Shown: positions 26,731 through 47,344 of the stretch, in pieces
Position numbering within the stretch: the stretch's first letter is position 1
Layout: every line of letters begins with the position of its first letter
NCBI GenBank assembly: GCA_016787525.1
Contig: JAEUUP010000027.1
Location: 3,058-67,057 of the forward strand
Direction of reading: 5' to 3'
Length of the DNA stretch: 64,000 nt
From: Saprospiraceae bacterium
GTDB taxonomy: Bacteria > Bacteroidota > Bacteroidia > Chitinophagales > Saprospiraceae
The notes under the pieces: generated by a model
Told to the model about the DNA's origin: nothing
The model's input: the letters and a program-made list of their open reading frames with translations, nothing else
Database searches by the model: none
Position numbers and translations under genes: made by a program

Positions 26731-27114
26731 TTACTGAGGGGTGTCTTTCAAGTTTTGAATTTGAGCCAATAAGTCTGCTTTTTGGGCTTCGTAGATGGCT
26801 TTTTGCTCTTCATAAAATTTGGCTTTATTTTTAGTTTGAAAAATATCAAACCCCCATATAGCAAGCATGAGTATTCCACTAAGCAACCCTCCATTACCAA
26901 TAAATGACATAAAATATAAACAAATAATAGTCATACAGGCAAAAATCCAAAAGCCAATTTGTACGTCAGTACTATCTAATTTTGGAATAAAATCTTGTCC
27001 TCGCCCTACTACTTTAAAACCATCCTGCCGCCGCAGCCATTGTGCCTCCAATTCTGCGAGGGCTTTTTCTAATTTTAGAATATCTATTTGCGTTTGTGGA
27101 TTCATTTTTTCCAA
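26731..27114 (-). CDS. Hypothetical membrane protein with flanking coiled-coil segments
   Basis: 127 aa with two central TM helices. It overlaps the upstream gene end by 13 nt, which suggests an operon. Confidence 0.4.
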   Translation of the reverse strand: MEKMNPQTQIDILKLEKALAELEAQWLRRQDGFKVVGRGQDFIPKLDSTDVQIGFWIFACMTIICLYFMSFIGNGGLLSGILMLAIWGFDIFQTKNKAKFYEEQKAIYEAQKADLLAQIQNLKDTPQ

Positions 27115-28358
27115 TATTGATTTTTAAAATCGTCTCTTAAAAAAGGTTCAACAACTTTGTAGGGAATAAAAACGGGACTGACATACCAACCATGATTACC
27201 TTTCCCAACCATGTAAAAACCTTTGGAAGTGAAGCCGTTTGACATGTTAAGCAGTAATTCTCTTTTACCTTTATCGTCATATCGTGCCTCCAAATTAAAA
27301 TAGTTATCTATTGCTTCTGCAAATTTTTCTTCGTCGTAACTTTTCTTAAAAACCTCTTTTTCTGTTAGTTTTCTTTTTCTTTTTATGTCATACGTTTCAA
27401 AACTCACCCCAGCACCACCATAAGTATCCAATTCTGTATTTGACCAAAAGAGTTTGAATATAACAACTAAATCGTCATTATTCCAATAAATACTGTTCCT
27501 CGCAACCACTGAATATTCGCTATTTCTCAAATGCTCATCTTCTTCTAAATCTTTCAAAGCCACGTCAATCGCCTTAGTACCTTCGATGATAAATGAGTCA
27601 CAATGTATTTCACAATTACTATTGAGTTTTAAATGATTATTTAAAAAAAACAAAACATCTTTTTTATTGGCGGGTTTAGCAATAGGTAAACTTGAAGTGT
27701 AAACAATACTCATCTTTCTATCTTCTTTGAGTAATTTCTTTGTGTCTATGTATGGCTTATTGACAAAACACTCTGATAAATCAAATTGAGTCACCCCCTC
27801 AGTATTTGTCTCTTGAAATTCAAAAACACCCTGTATCAATGTCTTGTTATCCAAAATTAAACCTTTCAAAACATTTTTATCGCCAAAACTACCGAGCATC
27901 GTAAATAAATTATCAAAATTTGCTTCTGCTTTATCACTCACATAGAAATCAAGAAACTTCGCTGTATCTGATTTAACACCCCAAACTTCATAGGCTCGTA
28001 CTTTTGATGGAATGAAAACAGTACCCGCAAAAGCCCATTTACCATCATACGTTAAATGTGCAAAATTCAAGTTTAAAATGGCAGAATCACCATTGAAAAC
28101 GCCTACCATGTGTTTGTAGAAAGGACGGTTGAGCTTATTTAAGTTCATGGTAGGCACATTGGGAGTCATGATTTTTAAAACCGAATCTGTCAAACGTTCC
28201 CTTAGTTTATATTCAGAATCCAAAAGATTCATTTCGGGAATAGAATCTTTCTTTTCTTCAATTTGAGTGAGGTTTGCTTCTGGTTGTTTAGCGACTTTAT
28301 CGTGGCAACAAAAAAAGATGAATGTTGTGAAAACAGTAAGTAAAAAATTGATTTTCAT
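27102..28358 (-). CDS. Hypothetical lipoprotein/secreted protein (start chosen at MKINFLL; the ORF track extends to 28508)
   Basis: Signal peptide MKINFLLTVFTTFIFFCC. A terminator-like hairpin at 28446-28492 separates it from the upstream 76-aa ORF, which supports the shorter start. Confidence 0.45.
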   Translation of the reverse strand: MKINFLLTVFTTFIFFCCHDKVAKQPEANLTQIEEKKDSIPEMNLLDSEYKLRERLTDSVLKIMTPNVPTMNLNKLNRPFYKHMVGVFNGDSAILNLNFAHLTYDGKWAFAGTVFIPSKVRAYEVWGVKSDTAKFLDFYVSDKAEANFDNLFTMLGSFGDKNVLKGLILDNKTLIQGVFEFQETNTEGVTQFDLSECFVNKPYIDTKKLLKEDRKMSIVYTSSLPIAKPANKKDVLFFLNNHLKLNSNCEIHCDSFIIEGTKAIDVALKDLEEDEHLRNSEYSVVARNSIYWNNDDLVVIFKLFWSNTELDTYGGAGVSFETYDIKRKRKLTEKEVFKKSYDEEKFAEAIDNYFNLEARYDDKGKRELLLNMSNGFTSKGFYMVGKGNHGWYVSPVFIPYKVVEPFLRDDFKNQYWKK

Positions 28359-28509
28359 AAATTTAGTTTTAAAAACGGGTGGCGTAAAAATATAAACGTA
28401 AAAGTTTCGGAAACGATACGAACACCGAAAACGCTGCTGTTTACTCCCCTCAGTAAAACAGCCTTTGCACGGGTGTGCAAAGGCTGTTTTAATTAAAGAA
28501 TTCATCAAA

Positions 28510-28740
28510 TTAAGCGGCTTGTTTCAACTCAAACTGAACATCAATTTCAGCCAAAAGCGTTATTAACTCGGTGACGAGTTGCGCTTTCATCCTTTGCTTT
28601 GATTCAATCAAATACGCAGGGGCATCCATCGAAAGAGCTTGTTTGATGCCTGTGCTGTACATCTTTATCAATTCGACAGTGCGAGTGATGCGCGTCAAAA
28701 GTTCATCTTGATGGGTCGGATCATTTTGTATTGTTACCAT
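28510..28740 (-). CDS. Small hypothetical protein, partner of the upstream minimal nucleotidyltransferase
   Basis: 76 aa, helical composition. Its start is 5 nt after the stop of the MNT-like gene. No HEPN Rx4-6H motif is evident. Confidence 0.4.
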   Translation of the reverse strand: MVTIQNDPTHQDELLTRITRTVELIKMYSTGIKQALSMDAPAYLIESKQRMKAQLVTELITLLAEIDVQFELKQAA

Positions 28741-28744
28741 ATTT

Positions 28745-29188
28745 TTAAAAATTGAGTTGAATAATACCTTTTGGCTTGCCTAACCTATCACTTCCGTACA
28801 ATTCCAATTTTTCATTTTTACTGTAAATTGTAATGTATTGTTTAAAATCCTTTTCAGGATAAACGGGAACTGTGTAAGAATCAATATTTCGCCATCGAAA
28901 CTCATGTTCCCAATTTCTGATTCGATTTTCAAATTTACGGTAAAATTCCCAATCGACAAAATTTACAAGGTCTAAATCATTCGGAAAAGGCTTTTTTGTT
29001 ACAAAACTACCATCAAGCCATTGATAAAAATGTCCACAAGGCGCATTTTGAAACGCTTTCACCAGTTCAAGATATTGGTTAAAAATACGTTCCCGATGCT
29101 CATTAAAAACAAAGTGCGTTTTGAACGTTTCAAGTGTTGTCGGTATTACTTCATAAGGTATAAGATGACCGTTGTTGTCGAATAGCAT
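28745..29188 (-). CDS. Minimal nucleotidyltransferase (MNT, pol-beta fold) domain protein
   Basis: 147 aa. ...WLDGSFVTKKPFPNDLDLVNFVD... fits the GS-x9-DxD nucleotidyltransferase signature. Confidence 0.5.
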   Translation of the reverse strand: MLFDNNGHLIPYEVIPTTLETFKTHFVFNEHRERIFNQYLELVKAFQNAPCGHFYQWLDGSFVTKKPFPNDLDLVNFVDWEFYRKFENRIRNWEHEFRWRNIDSYTVPVYPEKDFKQYITIYSKNEKLELYGSDRLGKPKGIIQLNF

Positions 29189-29453
29189 GTTTTTTGATGT
29201 TTGTTTTAGAATAAAAAAATTGAGTCAAGGACAAATTTACATTTAACAATGATATTTAAGCGTTTTTGGGTACAATAGTCACATTTTTTACACAATATAC
29301 ATTGATTGAAAAAGAGCTTTCTAAAAAGACATTGTCTTGGCGTATTTCCCTAATTATCACAGAACTTATACGGAATATGCCGTGTCTTGATGTTTACCCT
29401 CAGTAAAAGAGCCTTTGCGTGGATATTGGGGGTATTAGCATTAAAATGCTTCA

Positions 29454-29912
29454 TTTTGCAAGTTGCAACGCACTTTTGCAAGTTGCAACGGACTTTTGCA
29501 ACTTGCAAAGGACTTTTGCAAATTGCAACGCACTTTTGTAAGTTGCAAAGGACTTTTGCAAGCTGCAACGCACTTTTGCAAATTGCAACGCACTTTTGCA
29601 AGCTGCAAAACACTTTTGCAAATTGCAACGCACTTTTGTAAGTTGCAAAGGACTTTTGCAAGCTGCAAAGGACTTTTGCAAGTTGCAACGCACTTTTGCA
29701 AGTTGCAACGCACTTTTGCAAGTTGCAACGGACTTTTCCAAGTTGCAAAGGACTTTTGCAAGTTGCAAAGGACTTTTCCAAGCTGCAACGCACTTTTGCA
29801 AGCTGCAACGCACTTTTGCAGCTTGCAACGCACTTTTGCAAATTGCAACGCACTTTTGCAAGCTGCAAAACACTTTTGCAAATTGCAAAAACCTTTTGCA
29901 CGCTGCAAAAAC
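29454..29912. repeat. Tandem array of ~23 units of a 20-bp repeat TTGCAAGTTGCAACGCACTT (variants GCAAAGGACTT / GCAACGGACTT / TTGCAAGCTG / TTGCAAATTG)
   Basis: Directly visible periodicity. Each unit carries the palindromic hexamer TTGCAA twice (GTTGCAAC is also self-complementary). All six reading frames are open across the array, which is a non-coding hallmark. Confidence 0.9.
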
Positions 29913-30141: not shown

Positions 30142-31191
30142 TTACTCATTGATATGGTTAGTATAAAATATCGCAAAGCCAATAAACATCGATAGAATCA
30201 TAAAAAATCGAAAACCAACTCCATCTTCTGCATAAGCATGTCCACCGCTGTTGATATATTCTGATAATGTGTAATAAACGGTTTTCGAAGTTGTTTTTTC
30301 TATTTGACAAGGTTCGATAAATTCATATTTATCAAAAAAATCTTTCCACGTAGGCTTAACTGTTTGAGCGATTTTATAATTGAAATCTCTTTTAGTAATC
30401 ATCAAACGCAAGGAATCGCGTAAGATGATTGGGTCGTTTTTTAAATTTTTATTCGATAAAGCTTTGAACGCAGCACCGTCAATAGTAAACCTAAAATCGG
30501 CATATTGGGCTAATTTCAAATCGTACCAATGAGAGTTTTTATTGCGTCTTTCCATAAATTCAGATACTGTACCAACAATAGCTACAACATTGTTATTGTT
30601 AAGCGGAGGTTCGGGTTTATAATCAGAATTGATAATAAAGTTAAAAATCAGTAACAAAAGGCTTGATAAGGCAATGCCAATGCCTAATTTACGATAATTT
30701 CGACGAGAAAATATATTTGTACAATTAACATCCTGTTTTGCAAAGTGTGTAATTAATTCTGAAATAGTTTTAAACTCATCATGAGATGAACAACTTTCTG
30801 ATGACATTTGAAAGTATTGGTTATCAACTGTTTGACAATTTAAAATATACCAAGTGCCGTTTTTCCCTTTATGAATATCAATGTCGTAGTTGATAATGTC
30901 TTTATATAGAATTTGGGTTCTTTTGCTTCTAAATCGTTTATAGCTAATTAGAAAAGTATCATAAAAATCGAAACAATCTTTTTGAAAATAACGCCATAAA
31001 AAATAAGACATAATAATAATACAGGAGCAATTGAAAGACACAAAAGTCAAATTAGGATACTTTGTCGTTAATATATAAAATGCTAAAATAAAAAGCCCCA
31101 AAATCCCAGAACCTAAAAGTATAGGTGCTATTAAAGATGGTCTATAATGGAATTTTGATATTTCAGATAATGATTTAGAAGATTCAGACAT
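30142..31191 (-). CDS. Hypothetical multi-pass membrane protein
   Basis: 349-aa ORF with several hydrophobic helices and no recognisable catalytic motif. Confidence 0.35.
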   Translation of the reverse strand: MSESSKSLSEISKFHYRPSLIAPILLGSGILGLFILAFYILTTKYPNLTFVSFNCSCIIIMSYFLWRYFQKDCFDFYDTFLISYKRFRSKRTQILYKDIINYDIDIHKGKNGTWYILNCQTVDNQYFQMSSESCSSHDEFKTISELITHFAKQDVNCTNIFSRRNYRKLGIGIALSSLLLLIFNFIINSDYKPEPPLNNNNVVAIVGTVSEFMERRNKNSHWYDLKLAQYADFRFTIDGAAFKALSNKNLKNDPIILRDSLRLMITKRDFNYKIAQTVKPTWKDFFDKYEFIEPCQIEKTTSKTVYYTLSEYINSGGHAYAEDGVGFRFFMILSMFIGFAIFYTNHINE

Positions 31192-31227
31192 ACTTGTTTT
31201 GATGATTAAAATTTAAGAAAAAGAGTG

Positions 31228-31647
31228 TCAAATGCTTTTAAAACATTTGACTATTTCAAAAAAACTTTGTACCATAAGATAAGCAGGATAATAAATGACT
31301 TTAAGGAAAATTAAAGTGCGATTGAAATCATCTGAATATCGAAATGGATGGTCAATCATACCACCCAATAAGCCGATATTGTCGTATCGTGGTTTAGCGT
31401 CAAAAATATAGCCAATTAGTAGATAAACAAGAAAGAATCCCAATCCTACAATGACATACTTAATCTTTACTGCTTGAAGATCCTGTTTGCTAAACTCAAA
31501 AATATAGTAAACACATACCCAAAAACAAATTTGTCCTAAAATGAGGATGAGAAAATTAATGGGTTCATTGGGTTTATTTTCTCGTACTTTAACGCTTCCT
31601 GTCGGATGTGTTTTTTTAGCTTCCCATAGCCATTCAATTACACTCAT
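31228..31647 (-). CDS. Hypothetical small membrane protein
   Basis: 139 aa with 3-4 predicted TM helices. Confidence 0.35.
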   Translation of the reverse strand: MSVIEWLWEAKKTHPTGSVKVRENKPNEPINFLILILGQICFWVCVYYIFEFSKQDLQAVKIKYVIVGLGFFLVYLLIGYIFDAKPRYDNIGLLGGMIDHPFRYSDDFNRTLIFLKVIYYPAYLMVQSFFEIVKCFKSI

Positions 31648-34712: not shown

Positions 34713-34784
34713 AAAGATGGAGATACTGAGGGGGTAAAACAAAAAAGGCAGCTTGCAAATGAATGCAAACTGCCTTTTGTTGTG

Positions 34785-35173
34785 TGGAGCTGGAGGGCAT
34801 CGAACCCTCGTCCGGTCAAAGCATCAGAGAGCTTTCTACATGTTTAGTCGCCATATTTGTTTTTTCGAGCTGTGGGGAGGTTGGGCGACACACCCAGACC
34901 GCAGCCTTATCTCTTTGGATTTCGCCAACAGCCAGAGCGCTCTGTTAACTATTCTGATTAGGGATGATACGCCGCACGGCAGAAATCAGACAATCTGCGA
35001 AGACCACGTAGGTCGTGTGCTGAGCGCAAAGGCATTCTAACTCCTAGAATTAGGCTGCCATGGCATATTGATAGTTGCCAGCTGTAGTTTAAAGTACCGT
35101 TTTACGGGAGGTAACATCATAGCCCGACATGCTTACTAACCAATTCACTTTCCCGTCGAATCCAGTCAGCCCC
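34785..35173 (-). ncRNA. ssrA: tmRNA (SsrA), predicted tag approximately A-GNYQYAMAA
   Basis: Reverse complement starts GGGGCTGACTGGATTCGACGGG and ends GGACGAGGGTTCGATGCCCTCCAGCTCCA, which are the canonical tmRNA 5' end and tRNA-like 3' end. The internal reading frame GCT GGC AAC TAT CAA TAT GCC ATG GCA GCC TAA follows an in-frame stop. Confidence 0.85.
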
Positions 35174-47233: not shown

Positions 47234-47344
47234 ACTGAGGTTTGGGAGCGTTCTACTGAGGGGGTGATAAGTTCTACTGAGGTTTGAGAGCGTTCTACTG
47301 AGGGGGTGATTTGAAATCACCCCCTCAGTAGAACCATTTTCGAG
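47234..47344. repeat. Cluster of five TACTGAGG-family motif copies: two 40-bp direct repeats plus a 19-bp-stem perfect hairpin
   Basis: GTTCTACTGAGGTTTGrGAGCGTTCTACTGAGGGGGTGAT repeated twice, then GTTCTACTGAGGGGGTGAT-ttgaa-ATCACCCCCTCAGTAGAAC. Lies immediately 3' of folD. Confidence 0.85.

Follow-up and report, generated by a model that had tools for sequence, protein, structure and literature searches.

The question raised by this locus is whether a minimal nucleotidyltransferase gene in a Saprospiraceae bacterium heads a four-gene module of toxin-antitoxin (TA) or defence type, as the first-pass annotation had proposed, and what the unit to which it belongs may do. The window analysed here is a stretch of 64,000 nucleotides (nt) from contig JAEUUP010000027.1 (assembly GCA_016787525.1, positions 3,058 to 67,057 of the forward strand), and coordinates are positions in it unless the locus of a relative is named. 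We found that the unit comprises two genes, not four, and is a small mobile cassette on the minus strand (29290-28508), composed of a leader of about 100 nt, the gene for a 147-amino-acid (aa) nucleotidyltransferase with the Pfam domain DUF6932, and the gene for a 76-aa helical-hairpin protein.

The four minus-strand open reading frames (ORFs) of the proposed module are indeed present (28745-29188, 147 aa; 28510-28740, 76 aa; 27102-28508; and 26731-27114), and only the first two are conserved together. In blastn comparisons, homology of the window to three relatives (L001-L003; 82% identity) runs from 29290 down to 28508 only, beginning some 100 nt ahead of the transferase start codon and ending 2 nt beyond the stop of the 76-aa gene, and the unit is therefore two genes; the stem-loop that follows, and everything beyond it, is not conserved in the relatives. 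Moreover, the transferases closest to this one (60-86% identity) again have a 76-aa gene 2-4 nt downstream, and their neighbours differ wholly from those in the window, being a DUF5686/CarboxypepD_reg-domain protein and EamA in L001, and YceD and L32 in L004. As a unit, the pair co-occurs widely outside this genome.

Within the cassette, the transferase gene (28745..29188) and the hairpin gene (28510..28740) are tightly coupled, as had been described, with a gap between stop and ATG of 4 nt (TAA-aaat-ATG) in place of the 5 nt given earlier. The conserved leader (29189..29290, minus strand), which begins where the homology to L001-L003 begins, holds an AAATTT core conserved in the window, L001 and L004. 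The -7 consensus of Bacteroidota promoters is TAnnTTTG; the leader sequence TAAATTTG (29232-29239) fits this consensus, and we take it to be the putative promoter of the cassette by analogy with such promoters. At the other end, 19 nt after the stop of the 76-aa gene, a perfect 17-bp stem-loop (28454..28491, minus strand; dG -30.6 kcal/mol, z -6.33) ends the two-gene operon; it is terminator-like and lies outside the conserved cassette.

The 147-aa protein matches Pfam DUF6932 (PF22014) with 98.4 bits against a cutoff of 27, its residues 3-145 covering positions 3-141 of the 142-position profile. The GS-x9-DxD signature of DNA polymerase beta (pol-beta) nucleotidyltransferases, read earlier from the letters, was borne out: in the sequence ...YQWLDGSFVTKKPFPNDLDLVNFVD..., G60-S61 is followed by nine residues and D71-L-D73 (28970-29011), and a third carboxylate, D103, is encoded at 28880-28882. 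G60, S61, D71, D73 and D103 are invariant, also with two phage homologues included. The AlphaFold model (pLDDT 75.7, pTM 0.71) places the catalytic residues as in pol-beta-fold enzymes, and the protein presents the features of that superfamily, namely hG[GS]-x9-13-Dh[DE]h with a third carboxylate on the next strand of an alpha-beta-alpha-beta-alpha-beta core. The transferase is thus predicted to be catalytically intact, with its GS/DxD/D triad. Further matches were to the PADLOC model PDC-M63A (E 3.1e-14), which gives substance to the earlier suspicion of a defence-like candidate, and to phrog_9194, while the score against NTP_transf_2 was 20.4 bits, with a cutoff of 21. The protein falls in no housekeeping family.

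Structure comparison placed it only loosely. A Foldseek search gave no match at E<=0.001, and the nearest structures, of weak similarity, are the minimal nucleotidyltransferase (MNT) antitoxins HI0073, 8xeh, 5yep and 7ae2. AbiEii, one of the leads suggested earlier, was not among the structural matches, nor was MenT, and DUF1814 gave no match at E<=1. No sequence relative of DUF6932 was found in the PDB, our literature search found no paper on DUF6932 or PF22014, and a search pairing NetFlax with nucleotidyltransferase likewise returned nothing.

The first-pass annotation had described the 76-aa partner as helical and not of HEPN type, and hence the pair as other than a canonical MNT-HEPN system, and this description stands. 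Direct reading of the protein gives a single His and no R-x4-6-H, and the AlphaFold2 model (pLDDT 86) is an antiparallel two-helix hairpin (H8-37 and H42-75). Pfam searches gave no HEPN match; no helix-turn-helix (HTH), ribbon-helix-helix or AbrB DNA-binding domain was found; and the protein belongs to no Pfam, NCBIfam or PADLOC family. When the ORFs that follow DUF6932 genes were searched iteratively in 80 genome loci, 37 small proteins, one of 166 aa and the others of 69-104 aa, grouped with it; the profile of those 37 retrieved 30 proteins database-wide (E down to 3e-15). A profile built from the window protein and those recovered, run against 1.84 billion representatives, matched (E<=1e-3) 489 clusters at 50% identity, most of which, with few exceptions, are 63-80 aa long. 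The family consensus is DLLEQI..vN.MI.lH...(loop)...QY...K..F..EL, of which the subclade in the window has lost the conserved H and QY. On these sequence grounds, the 76-aa protein founds an unnamed family.

A recurrent trait of this family is its C-terminus. The protein in the window ends in ...ELKQAA, with the terminal Ala-Ala encoded at 28513-28518, and among 125 short representatives, each no more than 50% identical to the others, 91 (73%) close with -AA and 102 with -A; the most frequent tripeptide is LAA, and KAA, IAA and QAA are the other commonest endings. By way of background, only 8 of 701 long ORFs in the same loci end in Ala-Ala. The host carries its own transfer-messenger RNA (tmRNA) gene in the window (34784-35173, minus strand), whose tag peptide, GNYQYAMAA, ends in AMAA, and the Ala-Ala of the hairpin matches the end of this tag. 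When random C-terminal pentapeptides were screened in Escherichia coli, the potent degrons that depend on ClpXP proved to be dominated by Ala in both of the final positions (PMC10862746). Since the Ala-Ala tail is strongly conserved and ssrA-like, it suggests a degron and programmed instability of the hairpin.

Transferases of this family are nearly always followed by a partner. In 69 of the 73 loci with an intact transferase ORF, a same-strand ORF starts between -30 and +45 nt from the transferase stop. The hairpin family fills this slot in 33 loci, from Bacteroidota; a partner of about 430 aa, with a helical N-terminus, HTH_3 and Peptidase_M78 (ImmA/IrrE), in 14; and one of 135-172 aa in four, with HTH_3 in three and no Pfam domain in the fourth. 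Another 14 loci have a partner of 291-336 aa, a class defined by size only, in which the two tested phage partners are PDC-M63B, one protein is a TPR protein and two others are without a Pfam domain; four loci have other small partners. In other lineages, the hairpin slot is thus filled by Xre-HTH proteins, by HTH proteins joined to an ImmA/IrrE protease, or by PDC-M63B. The partners of about 430 aa (L049, L057, L062 and 11 others) come from Planctomycetota, Brocadia and other phyla; their helical N-terminus (MITNERQYRIT...) is followed by the Xre HTH and then by ImmA/IrrE (Peptidase_M78), and they are predicted to be three-domain, regulator-like proteins. A common origin of the partner classes was also considered and found no support: profile-profile comparison of the hairpin family against the N-terminal parts of the HTH, HTH-M78 and PDC-M63B partners gave nothing significant, with E at best 0.036-0.07 and a probability of ~1%.

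Where the partner is the hairpin, the two proteins have diverged together (Mantel r 0.71, reached in none of 2000 permutations). Of the two, the hairpin changes more quickly, with a mean pairwise identity of 23% against 36% for the transferase; a partner that diverges faster is usual for antitoxins. Furthermore, the two genes are joined in nature: P0054 is a clean in-frame transferase-hairpin fusion, P0180 is a second and less clean one, with a junction that is possibly frameshifted, and P0048, P0055 and P0061 are tandem double-hairpin proteins. All of these, except P0048 and P0055, keep the C-terminal -AA. The fusions and tandem hairpins argue for direct binding of the hairpin to the transferase.

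The distribution of the cassette is patchy and mobile. Neighbours of the hairpin-class cassettes vary by locus and include a beta-lactamase with an HflX-like GTPase, an M16 peptidase, Lon and mannitol dehydrogenase. In two Runella loci (L070, 4658-6471; L017, 4658-6468) the transferase start overlaps the stop of a 447-aa ORF, which is a tyrosine integrase in L070, the copy that was checked, and in Runella defluvii there are two copies of the cassette (L011, L070). In phages, PDC-M63AB, that is, a DUF6932-like transferase with an overlapping 310-aa protein (phrog_6603), lies directly downstream of cI in two lambdoid genomes, between cI and kil/gam in PhiR30_1 of Escherichia (L005, 2947-4301) and between cI and N in Eho59 of Erwinia (L006, 3010-4298). 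In lambda this slot is that of rexAB, a classic exclusion and defence slot expressed in the lysogen.

Comparison with known systems brings out likeness to several. PDC-M63 is a phage-defence candidate proposed by guilt-by-embedding in PADLOC (bioRxiv 10.1101/2024.01.29.577857). The cassette shares with it the PDC-M63A match, the Pfam family, and the order of a transferase first and a coupled partner downstream, but the B component (~310 aa, phrog_6603) is absent and an unrelated 76-aa hairpin takes its place; none of the four window genes, nor the two membrane-protein genes upstream, matched PDC-M63B, whereas the phage 310-aa partners do so at E 1e-42. The setting also differs, next to cI in two lambdoid phages and among chromosomal housekeeping genes here. 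Membership in PDC-M63 was rejected, given the absent B component.

Membership in the MNT-HEPN (type VII) class, to which MntA-HepT belongs, was likewise rejected, as the partner is not HEPN: it is a two-helix, 76-aa hairpin without R-x4-6-H. The transferase lies in DUF6932, just below the NTP_transf_2 cutoff, and is structurally only weakly similar, and the polarity of toxin and antitoxin is likely reversed here. DUF1814 transferases are roughly 250-300 aa long. MenAT and AbiE (PMC7450476, PMC11375011) resemble the cassette in concept, as two-gene systems in which a pol-beta nucleotidyltransferase toxin is neutralised by a cognate partner, but differ in the family and size of the transferase, in the upstream position of the antitoxin, and in neutralisation by phosphorylation or transcriptional control; as DUF1814 is absent and neither sequence nor fold searches matched MenT or AbiEii, membership was rejected here too.

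Xre-HTH/ImmA-IrrE fusions were found by Makarova et al. (2009; PMC2701414) in operons with toxins, PIN and RelE. Distant DUF6932 transferases pair with the same fusion (the Xre-COG2856 modules), in the slot that PIN and RelE toxins occupy there, but the partner in the window has neither HTH nor protease and no detectable homology to their N-terminal region. With type II TA systems the cassette shares two coupled genes conserved as a unit and a patchy, mobile distribution, and it resembles them in organisation and distribution; its 76-aa partner differs in having no DNA-binding domain, HTH being confined to the other partner classes.

What, then, may the cassette do? The reading that we favour, to which we give about an even chance, is that it is a TA-like module, with the transferase as effector and the hairpin as a protease-labile neutraliser. 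This reading is favoured because the pair is conserved and mobile, because of the fusions, the co-divergence and the degron-like tail, and because the hairpin is substituted elsewhere by antitoxin or regulator architectures. Under this reading, the free transferase would act as a toxin by nucleotidylating a cellular target, and the 76-aa hairpin would bind and neutralise it. The C-terminal Ala-Ala would mimic the ssrA tag and commit the hairpin to continuous degradation by ClpXP, so that a halt in its synthesis (through cassette loss, translation shut-off or perhaps phage infection) would free the transferase. The sequences themselves show how the two proteins fall into families, that they are conserved as a pair and diverge together, that they occur fused, that the hairpins favour Ala-Ala at the C-terminus, and where the cassette begins and ends. 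That the transferase is toxic, which partner neutralises which, degradation by ClpXP and any role in defence are points that we infer.

Several observations weigh against this. Basic charge, tried as a signature of a nucleic-acid-binding toxin, was not found: the transferase has an isoelectric point of 6.5 (family median 5.9), unlike typical toxins that target nucleic acids, and the structures closest to it are those of MNT antitoxins and not of toxins. Because the hairpin lacks a DNA-binding domain, autoregulation, a common trait of type II systems, is not expected; nor is the hairpin significantly homologous to the N-terminal parts of the HTH partners. Ordinary enzymes such as kanamycin nucleotidyltransferase (KNTase) likewise have a helical domain after the transferase, and the fusions therefore do not prove inhibition. 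The Ala-Ala tail could also have a purpose other than that of a degron. Finally, deletion of PDC-M63AB in E. coli NILS69, the only relative tested, gave no phage phenotype (bioRxiv 10.1101/2024.12.20.629700).

The neutral charge and MNT-like fold of the transferase leave room for two other explanations. According to the first, which we consider unlikely, the transferase would need the hairpin as an obligate subunit, to complete or activate it in the way that the helical C-terminal domain does in kanamycin or lincosamide nucleotidyltransferases, and the pair would form an enzyme in two pieces, without toxicity, whose substrate is a small molecule or a regulatory target. The layout just mentioned would suit such an enzyme, but other lineages have, in place of the hairpin, HTH repressors or fusions of an HTH to a protease, and these are regulators and not substrate-binding domains; the conserved ssrA-like tail suggests programmed instability, and the scattered, integrase- and prophage-associated distribution fits a selfish module.

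The second explanation reverses the roles, the transferase being an antitoxin or modifier that would silence the downstream protein by nucleotidylation and the partner being the effector, as in MntA-HepT; we hold it to be distinctly improbable. In mntA-hepT, the transferase gene comes first and the partner second, tightly coupled, and the gene order of the cassette is the same. The MNT antitoxins HI0073, 8xeh, 5yep and 7ae2 as best structural neighbours also speak for it, as does the Tyr of the QY motif, conserved in most hairpins and a possible AMPylation site. However, the subclade in the window is without both the conserved H and QY, a soluble two-helix hairpin of 76 aa without R-x4-6-H and without catalytic or membrane-disrupting features makes a poor candidate effector, and the alternative partners are HTH regulators, not toxins. 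Scarcely credible is the four-gene, membrane-associated defence module with a flotillin neighbourhood of the first-pass annotation, which has in its favour that all four genes lie on one strand, that the lipoprotein and transmembrane (TM) genes overlap by ATGA and that in L077, a distant DUF6932 locus, a flotillin homologue lies at a distance of 3 kb, and against it that a strong stem-loop and ~100 nt separate genes 2 and 3, that homology in the relatives ends at the gene 2 stop, and that none of 86 loci chosen for a DUF6932 gene has a homologue of the lipoprotein or TM protein, nor do the flotillin relatives share such neighbours.

To return to the TA-like reading, a wider version of it can be put forward tentatively, well short of an even chance: a large and so far unrecognised family of modular systems, for abortive infection or addiction, may have DUF6932 transferases as its shared effector and interchangeable neutralisers (hairpin, Xre-HTH, HTH plus ImmA/IrrE or PDC-M63B), those of the hairpin class bearing a hard-wired, ssrA-mimicking tail (-LAA/-KAA/-QAA) as a ClpXP timer. 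If this were true, translation arrest, by a phage for instance, would release the transferase, which would be a new mechanism of antitoxin lability, and the transferases would be a new family of nucleotidyltransferase toxins with a target other than nucleic acid. Should the TA-like reading itself hold, a Pfam domain of unknown function would gain a function; a new partner family of ~70 residues (the 489 clusters) would be named, its near-universal C-terminal Ala-Ala suggesting that antitoxin instability is written into an ssrA-mimic degron; and the PADLOC candidate PDC-M63 would be tied to a wider set of modules in which the transferase takes interchangeable partners. What is most original here, and lends itself best to testing, is the ssrA-like tail shared by a broad, unnamed family of partners.

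The remaining features of the neighbourhood stand apart from the cassette. About 100 nt beyond the stem-loop starts a lipoprotein-like ORF of 417 aa (MKINFLL...FFCC; 27102-28355 within the ORF 27102-28508, minus strand, ATG at 28355), whose TGA overlaps the ATG of the next gene as ATGA. This earlier call is plausible, while the 127-aa length given for the following two-TM coiled-coil protein would need an upstream TTG; its ATG, at 27105, gives 124 aa (26731-27105 within the ORF 26731-27114, minus strand). Neither protein belongs to a Pfam, NCBIfam or PADLOC family, tblastn against 86 loci chosen for a DUF6932 gene found no homologue of either, and a metagenome scan found no relatives; the two ORFs are a lineage-specific pair. 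Upstream, two membrane-protein ORFs of 349 and 139 aa (30142-31647, minus strand) lie between a 20-bp tandem array and the flotillin gene; they belong to no family and are absent beside the flotillin homologues of 12 metagenome loci. Those loci (L087-L098; flotillin identity 35-88%) contain none of the window's neighbours, and among the DUF6932 loci the flotillin homologue of L077 was the only homologue of the other neighbours found. The supposed functional link of the pair to lipoprotein, TM protein, array or flotillin therefore did not hold up, for want of co-occurrence, and the entire stretch of 26.7-31.7 kb looks lineage-specific. An empty-site and synteny approach was abandoned: with a lipoprotein without metagenome relatives and flotillin relatives without shared neighbours, no insertion site could be defined.

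The wider window contains genes for IMP dehydrogenase, alanyl-tRNA synthetase, a TonB-dependent receptor, a sigma-70-family sigma factor, formiminotransferase-cyclodeaminase and a protein sorted by the type IX secretion system, besides the tmRNA; no integrase and no known defence gene was found in it. The setting is an ordinary Bacteroidota chromosome with housekeeping genes and not the accessory context or defence island that had been supposed.

Two repeats complete the picture. The array reported upstream of the module is real (29454-29888; 21.8 copies of the consensus TTTTGCAAGTTGCAACGCAC, 87% matches), but none of the 98 fetched loci contains its unit, and it is accordingly not linked to the cassette. 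The motif-containing hairpin described between genes 2 and 3 is correct as to the stem-loop, which is followed by a copy of the dispersed motif ACTGAGGGG; as a feature of the module the motif was rejected, because TTTTACTGAGGG(G) has 24 matches in the window with at most one mismatch, against 0.32 expected. Its sites include 28447, 29397, 38382, 39560/39598, 47251-47333 and 53440, it also occurs in L004 and L001, contigs of the closest relatives, and at the ends of genes it is often found inverted around a GC hairpin, as CCCCTCAGTAAAAA-[GC hairpin]-TTTTTACTGAGGGG. The TTTTACTGAGGG motif is thus a genome-wide element, resembling a repetitive extragenic palindromic (REP) or terminator-associated element.

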